Positions 1-57,304 of a DNA stretch of 60,035 nt are shown here, piece after piece. Within the stretch, counting starts at the first letter, position 1. Each line of letters opens with the position of its first letter. Below the pieces are notes generated by a model. That model made no database searches. It was not told the DNA's origin and saw only the letters and a list, made by a program, of their open reading frames with translations. Origin of the DNA: Elusimicrobiota bacterium (GTDB taxonomy: Bacteria > Elusimicrobiota > UBA8919); NCBI GenBank assembly GCA_043802785.1, contig JAZDKR010000010.1, positions 1 to 60,035 of the forward strand, written 5' to 3'. The position numbers and the translations under genes are program-made.

Positions 1-629
1 TCATAACCAAGCCAAACTTTATTTTCTTTTATTAAAGGAATAAACTCTTTATAAATAATAGCTCCCTGCTGACCCAGTATCAAAAACTTTTTCTCATATT
101 TTACAAGCTGTGCCACATATTCGCGAAACAATGAAAATGGAGGATTAGTTACAACTATATCGGCTTGCTTTAGTAGTTCTATACACTCATCGCTTCGAAA
201 ATCCCCGTTGCCTTTTAGTGGGGTTGCGATGTTTTTATCGTGTTTCAGCAAATACTCCACATCATCAAGGCCTATCGCGCCATCTTTGTCAGTATCTGGC
301 ACTTCTTTAATTTCAATTTTGAACGGCTCTTTTCCCGATGGTTTTAATCCTTCTACCTCAAATAGTGGCAACTGACCGCCGACAATCGGCGATTTTACAT
401 AACTCGTAGTGACGAGCTTCTTTAATCCAAGCGCGTTAAAATTTGCCGCGAAGTATTTAAAAAAATTGCTCTCAAACGGATCGTCGCAATTACAATAAAC
501 AACCTTACCACGAAATTGATCTTTATAGTGCTTGAGTTCTTTTTCAATATCAACAAGCTGAGTATAAAACTCGTCTTTTTTTGCTTGGCTCGCCTTGTGT
601 AAGTTTTTGTTTAAAGATTTTGTTCTCAT
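1..629 (-). CDS. Adenine-specific DNA methyltransferase, M.EcoRI family (3' end runs off the window)
   Basis: Manual translation from ATG at 629: MRTKSLNKNLHKASQAKKDEFYTQLVDIEKELKHYKDQFRGKVVYCNCDDPFESNFFKYF, the typical N-terminus of the EcoRI-family methylase. Not in the supplied ORF track. Confidence 0.85.
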   Translation of the reverse strand, partial: MRTKSLNKNLHKASQAKKDEFYTQLVDIEKELKHYKDQFRGKVVYCNCDDPFESNFFKYFAANFNALGLKKLVTTSYVKSPIVGGQLPLFEVEGLKPSGKEPFKIEIKEVPDTDKDGAIGLDDVEYLLKHDKNIATPLKGNGDFRSDECIELLKQADIVVTNPPFSLFREYVAQLVKYEKKFLILGQQGAIIYKEFIPLIKENKVWLGY

Positions 630-6140: not shown

Positions 6141-6836
6141 TAGATGAATAACTGAACCAACATTTTTTCCAAAGACCGCTTTTAACATATTCCCACTTTT
6201 ATTAAAATTGAAAACTATGATTTCAATTTTATGCTTACGGCATAATGAAAATGCTTCTATGTCCATTACTTTCAGATTTTTTTTTATCGCATCATCATAT
6301 GAAATTTCTTTGATAAGTTTGGCATTTGGATTTTTTTTAGGGTCGTCATCATATAAACCGTCAACATTAGTTGCTTTTAATATCAATTCTGCTTTTGACT
6401 CTACGGCGAAAATTGCGGAAGCGGTATCGGTAGTAAAATGGGGACGTCCGGTGCCTCCAACCATAATAACGATGTTTTTATTTTTCCAAGCATTATCTAT
6501 TTTTTCAAGTGTGAACTGCTGTAAAAAATTACCCACACCAAAAGAAGAAAACACTTTTGCCGGAATATTTTTTGATTTGAACCTCTCGTTTAAAACCATA
6601 CCATTAATAAGTGTTGCCGTCATACCTATGTAATCCGCAGCCGTTTTGTCAATAAGTTTACCGTTCACACTACCACGCCAGATATTGCCACCGCCAACCA
6701 CAATTCCAATAGAAACGGCTTTTTTATAAACGGGAACTATTTCAGATATTATTTTATCAACTGACGAAAAATCAATCCCGTCACCGTTATTACCAAGTGC
6801 TTCACCTGAAAGTTTTATAATGATTTTTTTATACAT
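6138..6836 (-). CDS. pyrH: Uridylate kinase
   Basis: KLSGEAL, GGGNIWRG, ADYIGMTAT, FTTDTA and VDGLYDDDP motifs. Confidence 0.96.
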   Translation of the reverse strand: MYKKIIIKLSGEALGNNGDGIDFSSVDKIISEIVPVYKKAVSIGIVVGGGNIWRGSVNGKLIDKTAADYIGMTATLINGMVLNERFKSKNIPAKVFSSFGVGNFLQQFTLEKIDNAWKNKNIVIMVGGTGRPHFTTDTASAIFAVESKAELILKATNVDGLYDDDPKKNPNAKLIKEISYDDAIKKNLKVMDIEAFSLCRKHKIEIIVFNFNKSGNMLKAVFGKNVGSVIHL

Positions 6837-6854
6837 ACCATCATCGTGGAGTGA

Positions 6855-6951
6855 GGGAAAAGTTTCTGCAGAGCCTCGATTTGCGACTTATTCGTTCCAG
6901 GAGCAAATCGCAGAGCGAGTTCTAACGAGCGTCTCAAAGAAACTTATTCCC
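6855..6951. repeat. MITE-like element of about 97 bp with terminal inverted repeats
   Basis: GGGAAAAGTTTCT ... AGAAACTTATTCCC termini and an internal CGATTTGC/GCAAATCG stem. Confidence 0.55.
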
Positions 6952-6960
6952 GAACGACAT

Positions 6961-7575
6961 TTATTCTTCGCCTATCTTGAATCTTGTAAATCTTTTTACC
7001 GAAATATTTTCACCGAGTTTAGCAACCGCATCAATTATAAGTTCCTTTACTTTCTTATTTCCGGATGTTTCTCTGATATACGGTTGTTCAAGAAGACAAA
7101 TTTTTTCATAAAATTTATCAAGACGGCCGGTTATTATTTTGTCAATGATTTTTTCGGGTTTACCTTCCTTCAACGCTTGTGCTCTCAGCACCTCTTTTTC
7201 TTTTGACAATTCATCGGCGAGGATATTTTCAATTCCCACAACCATAGGCGATGTCGCTGCAATCTGCATGGAAATTTCTTTGCCAAGATTCTGAAAATCT
7301 TCCGTCTTGGCAACAAAATCGGTCTCACAGTTCAATTCCAACAAAACCCCTAACTTGCTCCCCGGATGGATATATGAAAATATCAAACCCTCTTTGGCTG
7401 TCCTTGAAGATTTTTTAAGTGCAATCGCAATTCCTTTTTCCCTTAATTTTGCAACCGCCTTTTCCTCGTCGCCACCTGTTTCTATAAGCGCCTGTTTGCA
7501 GTCCATCATCCCACAACTTGTTTTTTCACGCAGACGAGCAACCATCTCACCCGTTATTTTGACAGTTTGTAACAT
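6961..7575 (-). CDS. tsf: Elongation factor Ts (short form)
   Basis: LREKTSCGMMDCK and ELNCETDFVA motifs. Start moved to ATG 7575, after a GGAGGT SD. Confidence 0.97.
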   Translation of the reverse strand: MLQTVKITGEMVARLREKTSCGMMDCKQALIETGGDEEKAVAKLREKGIAIALKKSSRTAKEGLIFSYIHPGSKLGVLLELNCETDFVAKTEDFQNLGKEISMQIAATSPMVVGIENILADELSKEKEVLRAQALKEGKPEKIIDKIITGRLDKFYEKICLLEQPYIRETSGNKKVKELIIDAVAKLGENISVKRFTRFKIGEE

Positions 7576-15750: not shown

Positions 15751-15790
15751 ACCCCGTTAGATAGAAAACATAGAGAATATCTAACGGGGT
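15751..15790. repeat. ACCCCGTTAGA...TCTAACGGGGT palindromic element
   Basis: 11-bp inverted termini; a related copy lies in-frame at 48603-48654. Confidence 0.75.
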
Positions 15791-42040: not shown

Positions 42041-42694
42041 CACATAACCCACTTATTACTAAGTGGCGTGGACTATTTCTTCACCCCGATTATTTATCGG
42101 GGGATCGGCGTATTATAGAAGGCATAAATTTACCGCTGATTAAGTTTTCTGATTTCCCTAACAAGTTTCATCTTCTTTTCCAACATTTCTTTTGAATATC
42201 TTCCATTTCTCGGTGTTACTTTTTTATACTTGTTGAGAATTAGCAGCGCTTGCGGCTTTTTAATAATCAGAAAATCCTTAATATTACCGAGAACTTCCAT
42301 AACTCTGCCGGCTCTGTTGATTTGCCATCCATATGACAAACTATGGGTTGGCTTGCGAGGATATTTTTTCACAATGCTTCCGCATTTTAACTTTCTTTTC
42401 ACCCATTTCAAAACTTTCAAATTATTGTTTGAAATACTCAGTTGAGGTTGCGGAAACTGACCTTTGTTTGACACGGTCAATGTTATTGATCCTTCGCCAT
42501 CAATGAGACCAGCCAGATATGCTTTCTCCGTAATGACCAGCGGTATCACCTCCTATCTTTCCGTTAACCGGAAAAGTCTCTGCAGGGCTTTCACCCCTCA
42601 AGATTACCCGTCCCGATATGCCATCGGGATTAGGGCTTCCTTGATGTAAGCCGATTTTTGTCATTCGAATCGCTTCGGAAGTCGACTCTTTTGA
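42041..42694 (-). mobile_element. Group I intron (IA-like, 654 nt) in the tmRNA T-loop
   Basis: P1 TCGAT/GTCGA with a U-G pair at the 5' splice site; P3 ATCGGC/GCCGAT; P7 GAGACT/ATAGTCC; P8 CCCCGAT/ATCGGGG; P9 CCACTTA-GTAA-TAAGTGG; terminal G at 42041. Confidence 0.92.
42130..42549 (-). CDS. Single-motif LAGLIDADG homing endonuclease (intron-encoded)
   Basis: AYLAGLIDGEGSI motif; about 139 aa; located inside the intron between P7 and P3'. Confidence 0.93.
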   Translation of the reverse strand: MIPLVITEKAYLAGLIDGEGSITLTVSNKGQFPQPQLSISNNNLKVLKWVKRKLKCGSIVKKYPRKPTHSLSYGWQINRAGRVMEVLGNIKDFLIIKKPQALLILNKYKKVTPRNGRYSKEMLEKKMKLVREIRKLNQR

Positions 42695-43043
42695 ATCGAA
42701 CCCGCGTCCGAAAATAACGCCTGATGGTTACTACAGACATAGTCGGTGTTTTGTTTCACATTAAACCGCTTCCGCCGACAGAATCTGTTTAACGCTATCT
42801 GCTGAATTTCGCCATCGGTAACGCAGCATCACCGACAACTATTCTGCTTTATAACACCTTGCCCCAATCTCGCAGAAAAAAGATTGGGAAGGCGGCTTAA
42901 CGCGGTTTAAGCGTAAGCAACTACCGGTGAATAATTGGCAGTTATTTTGTGTAACCGATTTTTAACGCAGCCGTTCGGTTAACTGCGGTCTGCAACACAT
43001 CAAACAAATATTCCCGTCGAAACCTGTTCACCCCCATAAAGGC

Positions 43044-43151
43044 AGGGTGTAGGGGTTAGGGTGTAGGGTGTAGCGGTTGATGTAAATCAACGATTTTAGC
43101 GAATTTACATTCGCCGCTACTAATCCCCCTATCCCCTATCCCCTATCCCCT
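43044..43151. repeat. GGGTGTA / CCCCTAT heptamer element with a 70-bp core
   Basis: 43082-43151 is identical to 49311-49380. Confidence 0.85.
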
Positions 43152-47425: not shown

Positions 47426-47587
47426 TAAGACAATTCAAGATGATAACGGACTAACTAAAACGAGATTGCTTCGGGACTCTCGCCTCGCTGAAGCGAGAGC
47501 GAAGCGGGTCGTCCCTCGCAATGACACCTGCCTGCTCGCCTCTCTGCGAAACAGTCCGTCAGGCAGGTCTGTCTAAATCATATTCCA

Positions 47588-49273
47588 TTACAATTCAATG
47601 AAACCCCAAGGGAGAACGGATGCCGATGAATCGGCAACTACAATCTCTTTTAAGTAGTTATCCGGATTTATGTTGCATTTTGAGAAAGCATCAAGCCATT
47701 TTTCGTAGGAAAATGACTCGTTCCAGTTGTCAAATTTACAACCGTTTTTATGTGCTGCTTCCAAAACAGAACATAGTTTTTCATCACCTCTGGCAAAAAC
47801 TGCTTCAATTGTGGACATTTCAGGTTTGTGTGATTTCACTTCGGCAGGAAGTTTCTTTTTCAGATAGAGTTTTTTTTCGTTAAAATATTCAAACCCAAAA
47901 AACTTTTCTCTCTCAAAAACGGTGTGCGGTTTCGGTACAAACGGGGAAATGGTAATGTTCAGATTTAGTTGCGGTGTCTGTTTTTTTATACTTCGGACAA
48001 GTGATACAATTCCCTCAATATCCTCATTGGTTTCCGTCGGTAACCCAAGCATAAAATAAAGTTTTATGAGTCGCCAACCAGATTTATGTGCATAATTTGT
48101 CGTCTCCAAAATTTCCGCATCCGTGATAAATTTCCCAATATGTTTTCTTAACCGCTCTGTCCCCGCCTCCGGTGCAAATGTTAAAGATGTTTTTTTGAAA
48201 ACACGGGTCTTTGCCGCTAAATCCACCGATGCCGGATTGCATCTCAAAGACGGAAGTGCCACCGCCACATTTTTTGGAATACAAATTTTTAGAACATCAT
48301 CCATCAACTCGTTTATTTCCGGATAGTCAGAAGTGGATAGCGAAAGAAGAGAAATTTCGTCATAGCCGGTTGAAGCAAGTCCTTTCTCAATAATCTCCAA
48401 AATTTTTTCTTTGCTTCTTATCCGACGAGGAGAATACAATTTTGATGCCTGACAAAAAAAACAGCCCCTTGAACAGCCGCGCATTATTTCCACATTCAGA
48501 CGATTCTGCACGGTGTTCAAAAACGGAACAATCGGCTTCATTGGATATTCTGCTGTCTCCAAATCAACAACATTTTTTTTGATGAATTTTTTACCGTCGT
48601 GCACCCCATTAGAAGTATCGTGGTCCGCCTGATGCGGACCACTTCTAACGGGGTAAAACGAAGGCACATACACCGACGGAATTTCCGAAAGTTTTGATAA
48701 CAGTTCCGTCTTGTCTGTAATCTGTAATCTGTAATTTGTAATTTTTGTAATTATATCTTCCCCATCACCGATAACAAATGCATCTATAAACTCTGACAAT
48801 GGCAGAGGATTGACGCAGGCAGGACCTCCAGCAATAATCAATGGGGACTGTCCCTTGCGGACTGTCCCCATTCTATCTTTTGTTTTTAAGGGTATTTTCG
48901 CCAAATCCAAAATGTTAAGAATGTTTGTATAGCACAACTCGTGCTGAATGTTAAAACCAATAATATCAAATTCGTTAAGCGGCGTTTTTGTCTCAATAGA
49001 AAAAAGCGGAAGATTATTTTTCCTTATCAGTTCCTCCATATCCTGCTCTGGCGAGAATGCTCTTTCACAGACGATATGCCCATTTTTATTTAGGATATTG
49101 TAAAGAATTTGCATTCCAAGATTGGACATTCCGATTTCATAAAGGTCTGGAAAAACAAGACAAAACCGTAAGTGATAAGTGGTAAGTGGTAAGTGGTAAG
49201 TGGTATTCCACTCCTCACCAATATACTGTGATTGTTTTTTTACAAATGGTAAGAATTTTTTTATTGTATCCAT
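47588..49273 (-). CDS. TIGR03960-family B12-binding radical SAM protein
   Basis: FPDLYEIGMSNLG, IAGGPACVNP, EIMRGCSRGCFFC (CxxxCxxC), FAPEAGTERLR and YFMLGLPTE motifs. Confidence 0.9.
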   Translation of the reverse strand: MDTIKKFLPFVKKQSQYIGEEWNTTYHLPLTTYHLRFCLVFPDLYEIGMSNLGMQILYNILNKNGHIVCERAFSPEQDMEELIRKNNLPLFSIETKTPLNEFDIIGFNIQHELCYTNILNILDLAKIPLKTKDRMGTVRKGQSPLIIAGGPACVNPLPLSEFIDAFVIGDGEDIITKITNYRLQITDKTELLSKLSEIPSVYVPSFYPVRSGPHQADHDTSNGVHDGKKFIKKNVVDLETAEYPMKPIVPFLNTVQNRLNVEIMRGCSRGCFFCQASKLYSPRRIRSKEKILEIIEKGLASTGYDEISLLSLSTSDYPEINELMDDVLKICIPKNVAVALPSLRCNPASVDLAAKTRVFKKTSLTFAPEAGTERLRKHIGKFITDAEILETTNYAHKSGWRLIKLYFMLGLPTETNEDIEGIVSLVRSIKKQTPQLNLNITISPFVPKPHTVFEREKFFGFEYFNEKKLYLKKKLPAEVKSHKPEMSTIEAVFARGDEKLCSVLEAAHKNGCKFDNWNESFSYEKWLDAFSKCNINPDNYLKEIVVADSSASVLPWGFIEL

Positions 49274-49384
49274 ATAAAATCAGGGAGTAGGGGATAGGGA
49301 GTAGAAAGTAGTAAATCAACGATTTTAGCGAATTTACATTCGCCGCTACTAATCCCCCTATCCCCTATCCCCTATCCCCTGCCT

Positions 49385-50698
49385 TTAATACGCATACCTT
49401 CTTATGTGAATGTTCATCAAAAGTCCGACGGCAATCATATTGGCAATTAAGGAACTGCCACCGTAAGAAAGAAACGGCAACGGCACCCCTGCAACAGGCA
49501 TTATCCCGGTAAGCATTCCGAGATTTAATATAATGTAATATGAAAACATAACAACAATTCCAACCGCTGTCAAACTTCCGAATCTATCGGCGGCATTTCT
49601 GGCTATTGATATGCCTCTGGCAATTAAAACAGCATACAACAAAATAACGATAAATGAAAAAACAAGACCGCCCTCCTCAGAAATAACCGCAAAAATATAG
49701 TCGGTATGCTGGTCGGGGATGAATCCCAACTGTGTCTGTGTCCCCTGAAAAATTCCTCTGCCTGAGAGTTGCCCGCTTCCTATCGCAATTCTTGATTGTA
49801 AAATGTTGTAACCGCTGCCTAATGGGTCCAAAGACGGGTCCAGAAAAACAATAAGTCGTTTTCTCTGGTAGTCCTTAAGATTTCCTGATATTGAAATCGC
49901 TGATATAAGTCCAAGAAGAACCACTAAAATCACAATTTTATATTTTTCAAACGTTATATTAAACCTTAAAAATTTTATGAAAAACCATGCAAAAAAGGTT
50001 ACCAGAAAAACCGTACAAACATAAATTATCTTGAAATTTTTTATTAGAAAACCATATGCATCATTTATCGTCAAATATATTTCTAAAAACGGAAGACACA
50101 CCGTTACTAAAAAAAATAAAACCACAAGATTTATTATTTTTTTCGGAATGCCGCCAACATACATCATACCAAAAAAAATAGGAACAAAAACTGATGCTGA
50201 TGAAAAATCCGGTTCAAGCAAAATTAAGACAATGCAACCTGATGTGACCATAAATGCAGCAAAAAGTTTTGATATTTTTTTCATCTGGTAGCGATTTTTT
50301 TCAATAAATTTGGCGAGGTATAATATGAACGCTATTTTTGCGATTTCAGACGGTTGAAATGCAAATTTGCCTAAATCAAACCATGATTTTGAACCACGGA
50401 TACGGCTTCCCGCAAGAAGAACTGCAACCAACAAGAGCAACGCAAAAAAATAAAAATATTTCGTGTATTCGGAATATAATTCATATCGGACACTTATAAC
50501 CAAAAGCATCGCGGCAATACCGATGCCAAAAGCGGTTGATTGTTTTGCAACATAAAACATAGAATTACCAGTTCGCATCTGTGCCGAAAATATAAAAAGC
50601 AATCCTATGAATGCGATGAAAAGCACATCTATAAAAAGAATCCAATCAAATTTTTTTAATAATAATTTCATTTTTTTTATTTTGCCACAGATTTTCAC
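49385..50698 (-). CDS. rodA: Rod shape-determining protein RodA (SEDS family)
   Basis: GSKSW...FQPSEIAK, EPDFSSA, YQRKRL, IPDQHTDYIF and PLPFLSYGGSS motifs; follows mrdA. Confidence 0.93.
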   Translation of the reverse strand: MKICGKIKKMKLLLKKFDWILFIDVLFIAFIGLLFIFSAQMRTGNSMFYVAKQSTAFGIGIAAMLLVISVRYELYSEYTKYFYFFALLLLVAVLLAGSRIRGSKSWFDLGKFAFQPSEIAKIAFILYLAKFIEKNRYQMKKISKLFAAFMVTSGCIVLILLEPDFSSASVFVPIFFGMMYVGGIPKKIINLVVLFFLVTVCLPFLEIYLTINDAYGFLIKNFKIIYVCTVFLVTFFAWFFIKFLRFNITFEKYKIVILVVLLGLISAISISGNLKDYQRKRLIVFLDPSLDPLGSGYNILQSRIAIGSGQLSGRGIFQGTQTQLGFIPDQHTDYIFAVISEEGGLVFSFIVILLYAVLIARGISIARNAADRFGSLTAVGIVVMFSYYIILNLGMLTGIMPVAGVPLPFLSYGGSSLIANMIAVGLLMNIHIRRYAY

Positions 50699-57101: not shown

Positions 57102-57304
57102 CCGATTTAATCGGGCAACTACAAAACGGCTACAAAACGGCAAAGGCGCCCGATAAATCGGGCAACTACAAAACTACAAAACGGCAAAGGCGCCCGATAA
57201 ATCGGGCAACTACAAAACTACAAAACGGCAAAGGCGCCCGATAAATCGGGCAACTACAAAACGGCTACAAAACGGCAAAGGCGCCCGATAAATCGGGCAA
57301 CTAC
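57102..57304. repeat. Tandem array of 45-48-bp REP-like units
   Basis: Four copies of GGCAAAGGCGCCCGATAAATCGGGCAACTAC with CTACAAAAC(GG) linkers, plus a partial first unit. Confidence 0.88.

Follow-up and report, generated by a model that had tools for sequence, protein, structure and literature searches.

A stretch of 60,035 nucleotides from the genome of an uncultured groundwater Elusimicrobiota bacterium (assembly GCA_043802785.1, contig JAZDKR010000010.1, positions 1 to 60,035; the whole stretch is referred to as the window) contains a single-copy gene for a B12-binding radical S-adenosylmethionine (SAM) protein of the TIGR03960 family, and five segments of repetitive DNA are part of its open reading frame (ORF). 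Judged from the comparison with homologous sequences, this is probably a functional gene whose permissive surface segments were colonised by the small repeats of its own genome, and these repeats would be transcribed and translated together with the enzyme. The non-native load of this conserved two-domain metalloenzyme consists of three hairpin families, represented by segments (b), (d) and (e), and two heptamer arrays, (a) and (c), distributed over five loops or segments (Table 1).

Segments (a) to (d) had been described in an earlier sequence-only reading of the window as four in-frame inserts. Their coordinates, reading frames and peptides were confirmed from the sequence and with Tandem Repeats Finder (TRF). 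Segment (e) was missed there and surfaced in the DNA alignment with orthologues. The genome comprises 1.56 Mb in 93 contigs with 37% G+C, and ORFs stand in for gene calls in all coding counts given below.

Table 1. Features of the radical SAM gene and lengths of the five repeat sites. Lengths are residues between conserved anchors, from 120 homologues, which include 105 distant ones and the 14 close orthologues; medians are given for the close clade and the distant homologues unless stated otherwise.
Feature	Position in window	Strand	Sequence and reading	Site	Window (aa)	Close clade (aa)	Distant homologues (aa)
TIGR03960-family B12-binding radical SAM gene	47588..49273	(-)	ORF, 561 aa, single copy				
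Segment (a), heptamer array	49168..49205	(-)	ACCACTT x4 + ATCACTT, read in all three frames as TTYHLPLTTYHL, residues 24-35	A	13	14	12
Segment (b), double-palindrome hairpin	48841..48871	(-)	GGGGACAGTCC-GCAAG-GGACAGTCCCC, read as MGTVRKGQSP	B	9	7	4
Segment (c), heptamer array	48711..48752	(-)	ATTACAA/ATTACAG units, read as ITKITNYRLQIT	C	29	29	33
Segment (d), 54-nt lineage-specific insertion	48602..48655	(-)	Read as YPVRSGPHQADHDTSNGV; ends ACCCYRTTAGA...TCTAAYRGGGT	D	31	13 in 14/14	31
Inner hairpin in loop of segment (d)	48622..48640	(-)	GGTCCGC-ATCAG-GCGGACC, separate TCCGCMTCAGGCGGA hairpin family				
CxxxCxxC radical SAM cluster motif	48452..48475	(-)	CSRGCFFC, intact; C267, C271, C274				
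Segment (e), GTAG-tagged repetitive extragenic palindrome near C-terminus	47622..47641	(-)	GTAGTTGCCGATTCATCGGC, read as VVADSSA	E	14	10	11

Identity and conservation of the gene

The protein matches TIGR03960 with 584.9 bits over residues 7-560, which exceeds the curated NCBIfam cut-off of 462.3, and contains the Pfam domains Radical_SAM_N2 (PF19864) and Radical_SAM (PF04055). The three cysteines of the cluster motif are invariant columns in an alignment of 23 sequences, so that the motif and the frame are intact, as had been noticed from the sequence. The nearest proteins, with 67-83% identity, all originate from metagenome-assembled genomes of Elusimicrobia/Elusimicrobiota. No paralogue was found in the genome by tblastn; the next matches are other radical SAM proteins with 21-29% identity.

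Over the 490 codons shared outside the segments, the ratio of nonsynonymous to synonymous substitution rates (dN/dS, Nei-Gojobori method) is 0.069-0.089 at a dS of 0.87-1.31 in comparison to the five orthologues L001-L005, and it is similar for the N-terminal domain and the radical SAM core. With these low ratios the gene is under strong purifying selection outside the segments and is not decaying, which agrees with the earlier proposal that the protein is still under selection. The AlphaFold2 model reaches a predicted local distance difference test score (pLDDT) of 83.6 and a predicted template modelling score of 0.86. Its fold resembles those of two-domain B12-type radical SAM enzymes and methylthiotransferases such as MgmA, MiaB, TsrM and TokK.

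The gene is heavily loaded with repeats, but it is not unique in the genome in this respect: when arrays and perfect hairpins are roughly tallied, 13 of the 1047 long ORFs hold at least four such features, the radical SAM gene among them.

Insertion and replacement at the five sites

The two kinds of repeats differ clearly in their ability to fold. Segments (b), (d) and (e) fold far better than shuffled sequences (single-stranded DNA; -11.5 kcal/mol and z = -5.3 for (b), -20.9 kcal/mol and z = -7.5 for (d), z = -4.6 for (e)), and none of 200 shuffles folded as well as (d), whose core at 48603-48654 is a 52-nt palindrome with a nested inner hairpin. The heptamer arrays have no secondary structure in the same test. 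TRF assigns a period of 7 to both arrays, with 5.4 copies and 93% matches for (a), where the unit GTAAGTG corresponds to ACCACTT on the gene strand, and with 4.1 copies and 95% matches at 48714-48742 for (c). No Rfam family fits any of the segments, either in a scan of the whole window at gathering thresholds or in a permissive scan of the gene region. Predicted peptides spanning the segments include TTYHLPLTTYHLR and SGPHQADHDTSNGVHDGK.

According to the alignments, only (b), (d) and (e) are net insertions, and (a) and (c) fill native variable segments at about constant length. The description as four inserts therefore holds for (b) and (d). It fails for (a) and (c), which add no net length in comparison to the family medians (Table 1) and are no inserts of this gene copy either, since orthologues hold arrays at both sites, often with other units. 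Segment (b) adds about five residues relative to the family and is common to the window and its closest relative, L001; L002 contains a single arm, and the other orthologues have unrelated sequence at this site. Segment (d) is absent from all 14 close orthologues, a net gain of 54 nt, and its 18 residues are placed at the point where the close clade lost an excursion of about 18 residues that distant homologues kept. Segment (e) is found only in the window, where the site has 33 nt compared to 21 nt in 10/10 orthologues, a net gain of 12 nt. The flanks of (d) and (e) align base for base with the orthologues, and all net length changes in the gene are multiples of 3. An exact-flank scan of metagenome contigs revealed no population variant of the gene.

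In the homologue alignment the segments fall in gapped or variable columns and not on conserved residues. In the AlphaFold2 model the pLDDT drops below 50 for (a) at residues 19-27, for (b) at 138-140 and for (d) at 210-227, so that these three segments are placed in low-confidence loops. Array (c) is different; it belongs to a confidently predicted helix (residues 172-184, pLDDT above 90), and the clade retains its peptide, YRLQIT with variants. Apart from this helix, the idea of the sequence-only reading that the gene is a map of insertion tolerance is borne out, as the sites are found where the family tolerates indels and where the model has low-pLDDT loops. The gene maps, by natural example, where TIGR03960 proteins are permissive and what amount of non-native sequence they can take up.

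Small private inserts also occur in orthologues of the gene. A 21-nt palindrome, CCTTGCCTACCGGCAGGCAGG, lies within the site C array of L005 (L005:3001-4635), a 24-nt insert with CGAATCCATTCG follows EREKFF in L003 (L003:3001-4638), and site A of L206 (L206:301-1926) contains a hairpin-like CCACCGCGGCGGATCC stretch.

Hairpin family (d)

Family (d), defined by the ends ACCCYRTTAGA...TCTAAYRGGGT, has 17 copies in the genome. One of them is the hairpin at window position 15751-15790, to whose family segment (d) had already been assigned correctly. Eleven of the 17 are located inside ORFs of at least 360 aa. Judged by sequence, the hosts include UvrA, MurE, cysteinyl-tRNA synthetase (with visible HIGH and KMSKS motifs), CinA, a ComM-like protein and an LptF/G-like permease. 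For UvrA, residues 21-168 of the query (148 aa) correspond to 132 residues of the solved 3pih/6n9l chains, and the difference of 16 residues equals the length of the family (d) element; the alignment with 9gxk restarts directly past the element. Likewise, alignments of MurE begin right behind its insert.

Inside ORFs the element is read only as xPVR..SNGV (phase 1) or as TPLE..LTGL (phase 0), phase 2 containing a TAG stop, and all 13 in-ORF copies of the genome are in the stop-free phases. The length of the palindrome is 1 mod 3 in 14 of the 17 copies. Other copies hold different inner hairpins in their loop, and hairpins like the inner one of segment (d) are nested in other elements at other sites of the genome. 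The loop of family (d) is a landing pad for other small hairpins.

The ends of family (d) were also found at at least 119 loci beyond this genome, in many phyla, compared to roughly 10-20 matches that might be expected by chance, a rough estimate and not a computed value. Among the matches listed are Omnitrophota, Patescibacteria, Planctomycetota, Nitrospirota, Desulfobacterota, Bacteroidota and Bacillota as well as two archaeal bins; about a dozen of these listed loci share one 31-nt form with the loop ATAGTAAACAT. Again among the matches listed, the length is 1 mod 3 in 79 of 127, and 29 of 129 are located in ORFs of at least 150 aa, all 29 in phases 0 or 1. The elements are flanked by a direct repeat T-N-N-A(-C), whose middle dinucleotide is the same on both sides in 84 of 132 of the matches listed, while shuffled pairing gives an expectation of 24.5/132 and a maximum of 37 in 200 shuffles. 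Such a flank repeat is what would be expected from a target-site duplication. Among the 119 loci listed, no gene consistently accompanies the family: the top cluster of ORFs is a generic regulator, a few loci contain pilin genes, and the stretches between paired copies hold ordinary genes. A literature search with the core sequence returned chance primer matches only.

We also considered if the element could be an integron attC site because of its GTTAGAA/TTCTAAC ends. An attC site requires the order 5'-RYYYAAC ... GTTRRRY-3' on the recombined strand. The palindromic element reads 5'-GTTAGAA...TTCTAAC-3' on both strands; the order of the core sites is therefore opposite, and the assignment was rejected.

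In other phyla, family (d) copies are found within the leader of genes for type IV pilin-like proteins (L159:6004-6501 and 6588-7028; also L110, L131 and L140). The product is KGF-TPLEMKSLTGF-TLIEL, in which the GFT codons are duplicated and the G|F cleavage site is kept. In pilin genes, family (d) apparently prefers the GGTTTTAC codons as its target.

Hairpin families (b) and (e)

Family (b) consists of two copies of GGGACWGTCCC and has four copies in the genome, all of them inside ORFs of at least 229 aa. A plain tandem duplication of 15 nt would fit the single arm of L002, yet the two-arm form recurs at three other loci, and segment (b) is therefore treated as a member of a repeat family.

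Segment (e) has the layout GTAG-TT-GCCGATTCATCGGC. Its family, GTAG-N(1-4)-CCGAT..ATCGG, comprises 59 genome copies, of which 15 are located in ORFs of at least 200 aa and are read as VVADxSA or PDxSGNY. As a short palindrome with GTAG at one end and a high copy number, segment (e) corresponds to the sequence definition of the GTAG-tagged repetitive extragenic palindromes (REPs). The same REP, GTAG/CTAC-tagged with CCCGAT..ATCGGG, forms a tandem array at window position 57109-57304 (44-nt period, 4.3 copies), which resembles a bacterial interspersed mosaic element.

The genome encodes four Y1_Tnp proteins (IS200-like or similar to REP-associated tyrosine transposases, RAYTs) at C9:8914-9258, C76:2847-3191, C63:3306-3524 and C25:3858-4130; the C76 copy contains one in-frame TAG. 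Tandem hairpins with GTAG/CTAC tags flank the copies on C63 and C9, which is a REPtron-like arrangement. These hairpins are of other sequence, and none of the four genes is flanked by an (e)-type REP.

Heptamer arrays across the genome and in orthologues

With TRF, 198 strict period-7 arrays were found in the genome and none in a composition-shuffled genome. Ninety of the 198 (45%) are located inside ORFs of at least 200 aa, including genes for housekeeping enzymes, which substantiates the earlier suggestion that heptamer arrays, too, become coding. Since ORFs of this size cover 75% of the genome, the arrays are depleted in coding sequence, yet they are common there. The unit of segment (a), ACCACTT, is the commonest one in the genome, with 32 arrays, of which 13 are located in ORFs. 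Arrays of AAGGATT and AATTATG, which contain stops on both strands, never occur in ORFs.

At site A the unit is ACCACTT in the window, CCCACTT in L001, L002 and L004, AACCGCT in L005, AAGTCAG in L204 and AAGTCCG in L205 and L207; L206 has a degenerate array plus a hairpin, and L003 and L006 have no array. Thus five units are found among 11 orthologues. Four of these units and the empty state all occur within a subclade of seven members (support 100/96). The alleles of site C are ATTACAA/ATTACAG, a perfect ATTGCAG x5 in L205, ATCTCAA with the 21-nt palindromic insert in L005, and an AAAGATT type in L004 and L207. Because dS between the orthologues is about 1, the near-perfect arrays would be either young or continually homogenised. 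From this comparison, (a) and (c) are best regarded as long-standing arrays with turnover of the unit and not as new insertions.

L004, which belongs to the tight subclade, and L207, which is outside of it, share a distinct allele of the whole helix region of site C, RFKDSKIERLKILEDLAK. Recombination between lineages could explain this, as could convergent rewriting.

The unit at site A is usually the commonest variant of the respective genome. Counted as three-unit windows with up to one mismatch, ACCACTT and CCCACTT occur 61 and 2 times in the genome of the window (G000), 11 and 17 times in G001, 25 and 36 times in G002, and 18 and 24 times in G004; both are missing (0 and 0) in G003 and G006, which have no site A array. 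AAGTCAG is abundant in the L204 genome only. An exception to the trend is AACCGCT, which is found in the L005 genome at site A alone. For 11 orthologous sites with a CCCACTT array in G001 or G002, both flanks could be mapped to G000. Six of these sites contain ACCACTT-type arrays in G000 (three with nested hairpins), five contain arrays of unrelated units, and none contains CCCACTT. This pattern fits exchange between arrays or rewriting. Parallel slippage could also produce it, as the arrays of the relatives often start with one ACCACTT unit. The gene has the same sequence throughout in three independent assemblies of the L001 species, and no variation of array length was seen among them.

Several ACCACTT arrays of G000 are broken by small GC-rich hairpins (GCCCGACGACCGCCAGGCGGGC, TTCGCCACAGGCGAA), as at C2:6313-6393, C26:9962-10046 and C35:9272-9343, and the orthologous CCCACTT arrays of the relatives are unbroken. 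The arrays are therefore landing sites for hairpins.

Origin of the segments and alternative explanations

The observations can be combined into the following scenario. Small hairpin-forming dispersed repeats would have inserted in frame into the radical SAM gene. Segment (d) with its nested element would have arisen after the split from the closest sequenced relative, and (e) would be lineage-specific too; the GGGACWGTCCC double palindrome of (b), common to L001, would be older. Only those copies would have survived whose length is a multiple of 3 and which have no stop codon in the reading frame. The heptanucleotide arrays (a) and (c) would occupy two fixed variable segments throughout the Elusimicrobiota clade, where they would be continually re-homogenised and their unit replaced with the segment length kept about constant. 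Since 7 is not a multiple of 3, successive units of such an array run through all three frames and give a peptide that repeats every seven residues. In the protein the repeats would appear as extra or replaced loop sequence. We infer that the segments are translated and the hairpin families mobile, and likewise how the arrays turn over, by slippage with or without exchange between arrays.

Several points weigh against this scenario. Array (c) may be structurally required and not merely tolerated, because it is part of a well-predicted helix and its peptide is conserved across the clade. Segments (d) and (e) come from a single assembly, since a protein-guided scan of metagenomes yielded no contig closer than 83% identity. 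For the (d) insertion in the radical SAM gene the target-site duplication is ambiguous (TTTAC on the left, TGCAC on the right), and only the family-wide statistic is significant. The mobility of the hairpin families is deduced from their distribution, and an all-against-all clustering of the ORFs at the 119 loci listed revealed no transposase or nuclease tied to family (d). Finally, the rule of no stops and a length of 3n is in part circular, as the counts were restricted to intact ORFs.

A more far-reaching version of colonisation by the genome's own repeats can be formulated, which we regard as a tentative proposal, possible but rather doubtful. Permissive protein loops and intergenic sites may persist as array sites into which the currently dominant 7-nt unit of the genome is written again and again without a change of length, by exchange between arrays or by templated rewriting. 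Alongside, ACCCCGTTAGA..TCTAACGGGGT may be an undescribed ultra-small mobile hairpin of bacteria and archaea, which would be compatible with coding sequences owing to its 3n+1 length plus the TNNA(C) duplication and to its two stop-free frames, and which might be moved by HUH/Y1 enzymes. The overwriting of array sites would fit because of the five units at site A among 11 orthologues, the ratio of 61 to 2 windows that is reversed in the relatives, and the replacement by ACCACTT at 6/11 sites with CCCACTT at 0/11.

Among the explanations that depart from simple tolerance, co-option of the segments for a function survives best, although we consider it unlikely. Helix (c) could serve as a heptad-like structural element, and loop (d) could replace the excursion of about 18 residues lost by the clade. 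The high confidence of the helix and the retention of its peptide speak for the former, and the latter is in line with the restoration of the family-typical length of site D, 31 residues being also the median of the distant homologues. However, the peptide of (d) is the generic product of a repeat that occurs in UvrA, MurE, CysS and other genes as well; it is predicted to be disordered, and the 14 close orthologues all do without it. At sites A and C, moreover, turnover of the unit changes the peptide freely.

It is less probable still, indeed quite improbable, that array (a), at codons 24-36, acts as a contingency locus at which adding or dropping a single 7-nt unit would change the frame and turn the enzyme off or on. 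The unit length is not a multiple of 3 and the array is placed early in the ORF, and heptanucleotide long simple sequence repeats (LSSRs) were proposed as slippage-prone, as far as the summary of Mrazek 2007 in PMC4679880 goes. Against switching stand the small size of array (a), with only about five units, and the presence of 90 such arrays in long ORFs including housekeeping genes, where they do not exceed 7.3 units compared to up to 14.7 in intergenic regions. Its length is also identical in the three independent assemblies of the L001 species, and across the orthologues the segment is held at 39-45 nt despite the changes of the unit.

The stable hairpins formed by (b), (d) and (e), and the similar hairpins of inverted arrays that fill intergenic spacers such as 49275-49387, might indicate that the segments are lost before the protein is made, either through processing of the RNA, of the kind known for intervening sequences in rRNA, or through excision from the DNA. 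This is very improbable. Removal would make frame and stops irrelevant, yet the in-ORF copies of family (d) are free of stops in 13/13 cases here and in 29/29 in other genomes among the matches listed, and every net length in the radical SAM gene is divisible by 3. Arrays (a) and (c) are without secondary structure, and (c) replaces helix residues and does not add any. We know of no bacterial mechanism for a precise re-ligation of mRNA at such hairpins.

That faulty assembly of a repeat-rich metagenome bin produced (d) and (e), as their presence in one assembly only and the many near-identical repeats that could mislead an assembler might suggest, is hardly credible, since both are exact in-frame insertions with flanks that match the orthologues base for base, the analogous segments (a), (b) and (c) recur in independent assemblies, and chimeric joins would rarely keep a frame of 561 codons.

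Relation to known repeats

Selfish DNA within genes was first observed in Rickettsia. Rickettsia palindromic elements (RPEs) are, as described in the summaries of Ogata et al. 2000 given in PMC3733652 and PMC10969869, palindromic repeats found in frame in genes which still encode functional proteins. The hairpins of the radical SAM gene resemble them as members of dispersed palindromic families (17 copies of (d), 4 of (b) and 59 of (e)) that occur in frame in surface or variable segments; also, (d) and (e) are absent from close orthologues, and the gene that hosts them is under purifying selection. In contrast to RPEs, which have about 100-150 nt and are known from Rickettsia, the elements described here have 20-54 nt, unrelated sequences and an elusimicrobial host. 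Because size, sequence and phylum all differ, the segments are not members of the RPE families (RPE-1..8). Further differences are the presence of several unrelated families plus heptamer arrays in one gene, the nesting of hairpins in hairpins, and the spread of family (d) over many phyla and not within one genus. By analogy, the radical SAM gene would functionally be a case of the RPE or intragenic REP phenomenon, only denser and more varied. The coding heptamer arrays are new relative to RPEs and REPs.

Di Nocera et al. 2013 (PMC3733652) surveyed GTAG-tagged REPs with their RAYTs and REPtrons, and REPs inside genes are also reported there. Segment (e) is similar to these in being a short GTAG-tagged palindrome with 59 copies and tandem arrays, in a genome with Y1 HUH transposase genes flanked by GTAG/CTAC hairpins. 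This agrees with the REPtron picture drawn there. No RAYT-like gene flanked by the (e) REP itself was found, and the Elusimicrobiota are outside the survey of PMC3733652.

Heptanucleotide repeats are known as the GGGAATC type of Xanthomonas and Nostoc (PMC4692102) and as TAACTGA of Beggiatoaceae (PMC4679880). Like the heptanucleotide LSSRs and the short tandemly repeated repetitive sequences (STRRs) of cyanobacteria, the arrays described here are short, number in the hundreds, belong to several unit families and often form inverted pairs between genes. Whereas LSSRs are characterised as predominantly intergenic, 45% of the strict arrays are found here in long ORFs, including the interior of housekeeping enzymes, and unlike in known LSSRs a protein site keeps its array while the unit changes between species. 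Hairpins reportedly insert into the cyanobacterial arrays, and small hairpins are likewise inserted into arrays of the genome studied here. The gene neuO of phage CUS-3 contains phase-variable heptanucleotide repeats. Array (a) resembles these as a tandem 7-nt unit in the 5' part of an ORF which is translated in three frames; in contrast to neuO, the arrays here are short, stable in length in the assemblies compared and located in housekeeping genes, and no on/off variants were seen.

Proteomes are evidently shaped by small repeats far beyond Rickettsia, namely in Elusimicrobiota and, in the case of family (d), in many uncultured phyla. This has consequences for how genes are called, proteins modelled by homology and domains annotated in metagenome-assembled genomes. 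The fixed position of the heptamer arrays together with the changing unit makes it testable if they are maintained by local slippage or by a genome-wide process.

Repeats in the neighbourhood of the gene

A gene for transfer-messenger RNA (139.7 bits) at window position 42692-43027 adjoins heptamer arrays at 43045-43077 and 43126-43151. The spacer between a rodA/ftsW-like gene and the radical SAM gene (49275-49387) consists of a hairpin of about 110 nt, whose arms are inverted GGGGATA/TATCCCC heptamer arrays (30-nt arms, 80% complementary). A permissive Rfam scan of this spacer gave only chance matches to miRNA precursors.

Directly past the stop codon of the radical SAM gene, at 47477-47568, nested GC-rich hairpins are found. 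They comprise ACCTGCCTG..CAGGCAGGT plus an element of the GTCATTGCGAGG...GAAGCAATCTC type around CTCTCGCCTC/GAAGCGAGAG. The GTCATTGC..GCAATCTC frame seen there also surrounds TCCGCCTCAGGCGGA hairpins at other sites of the genome.

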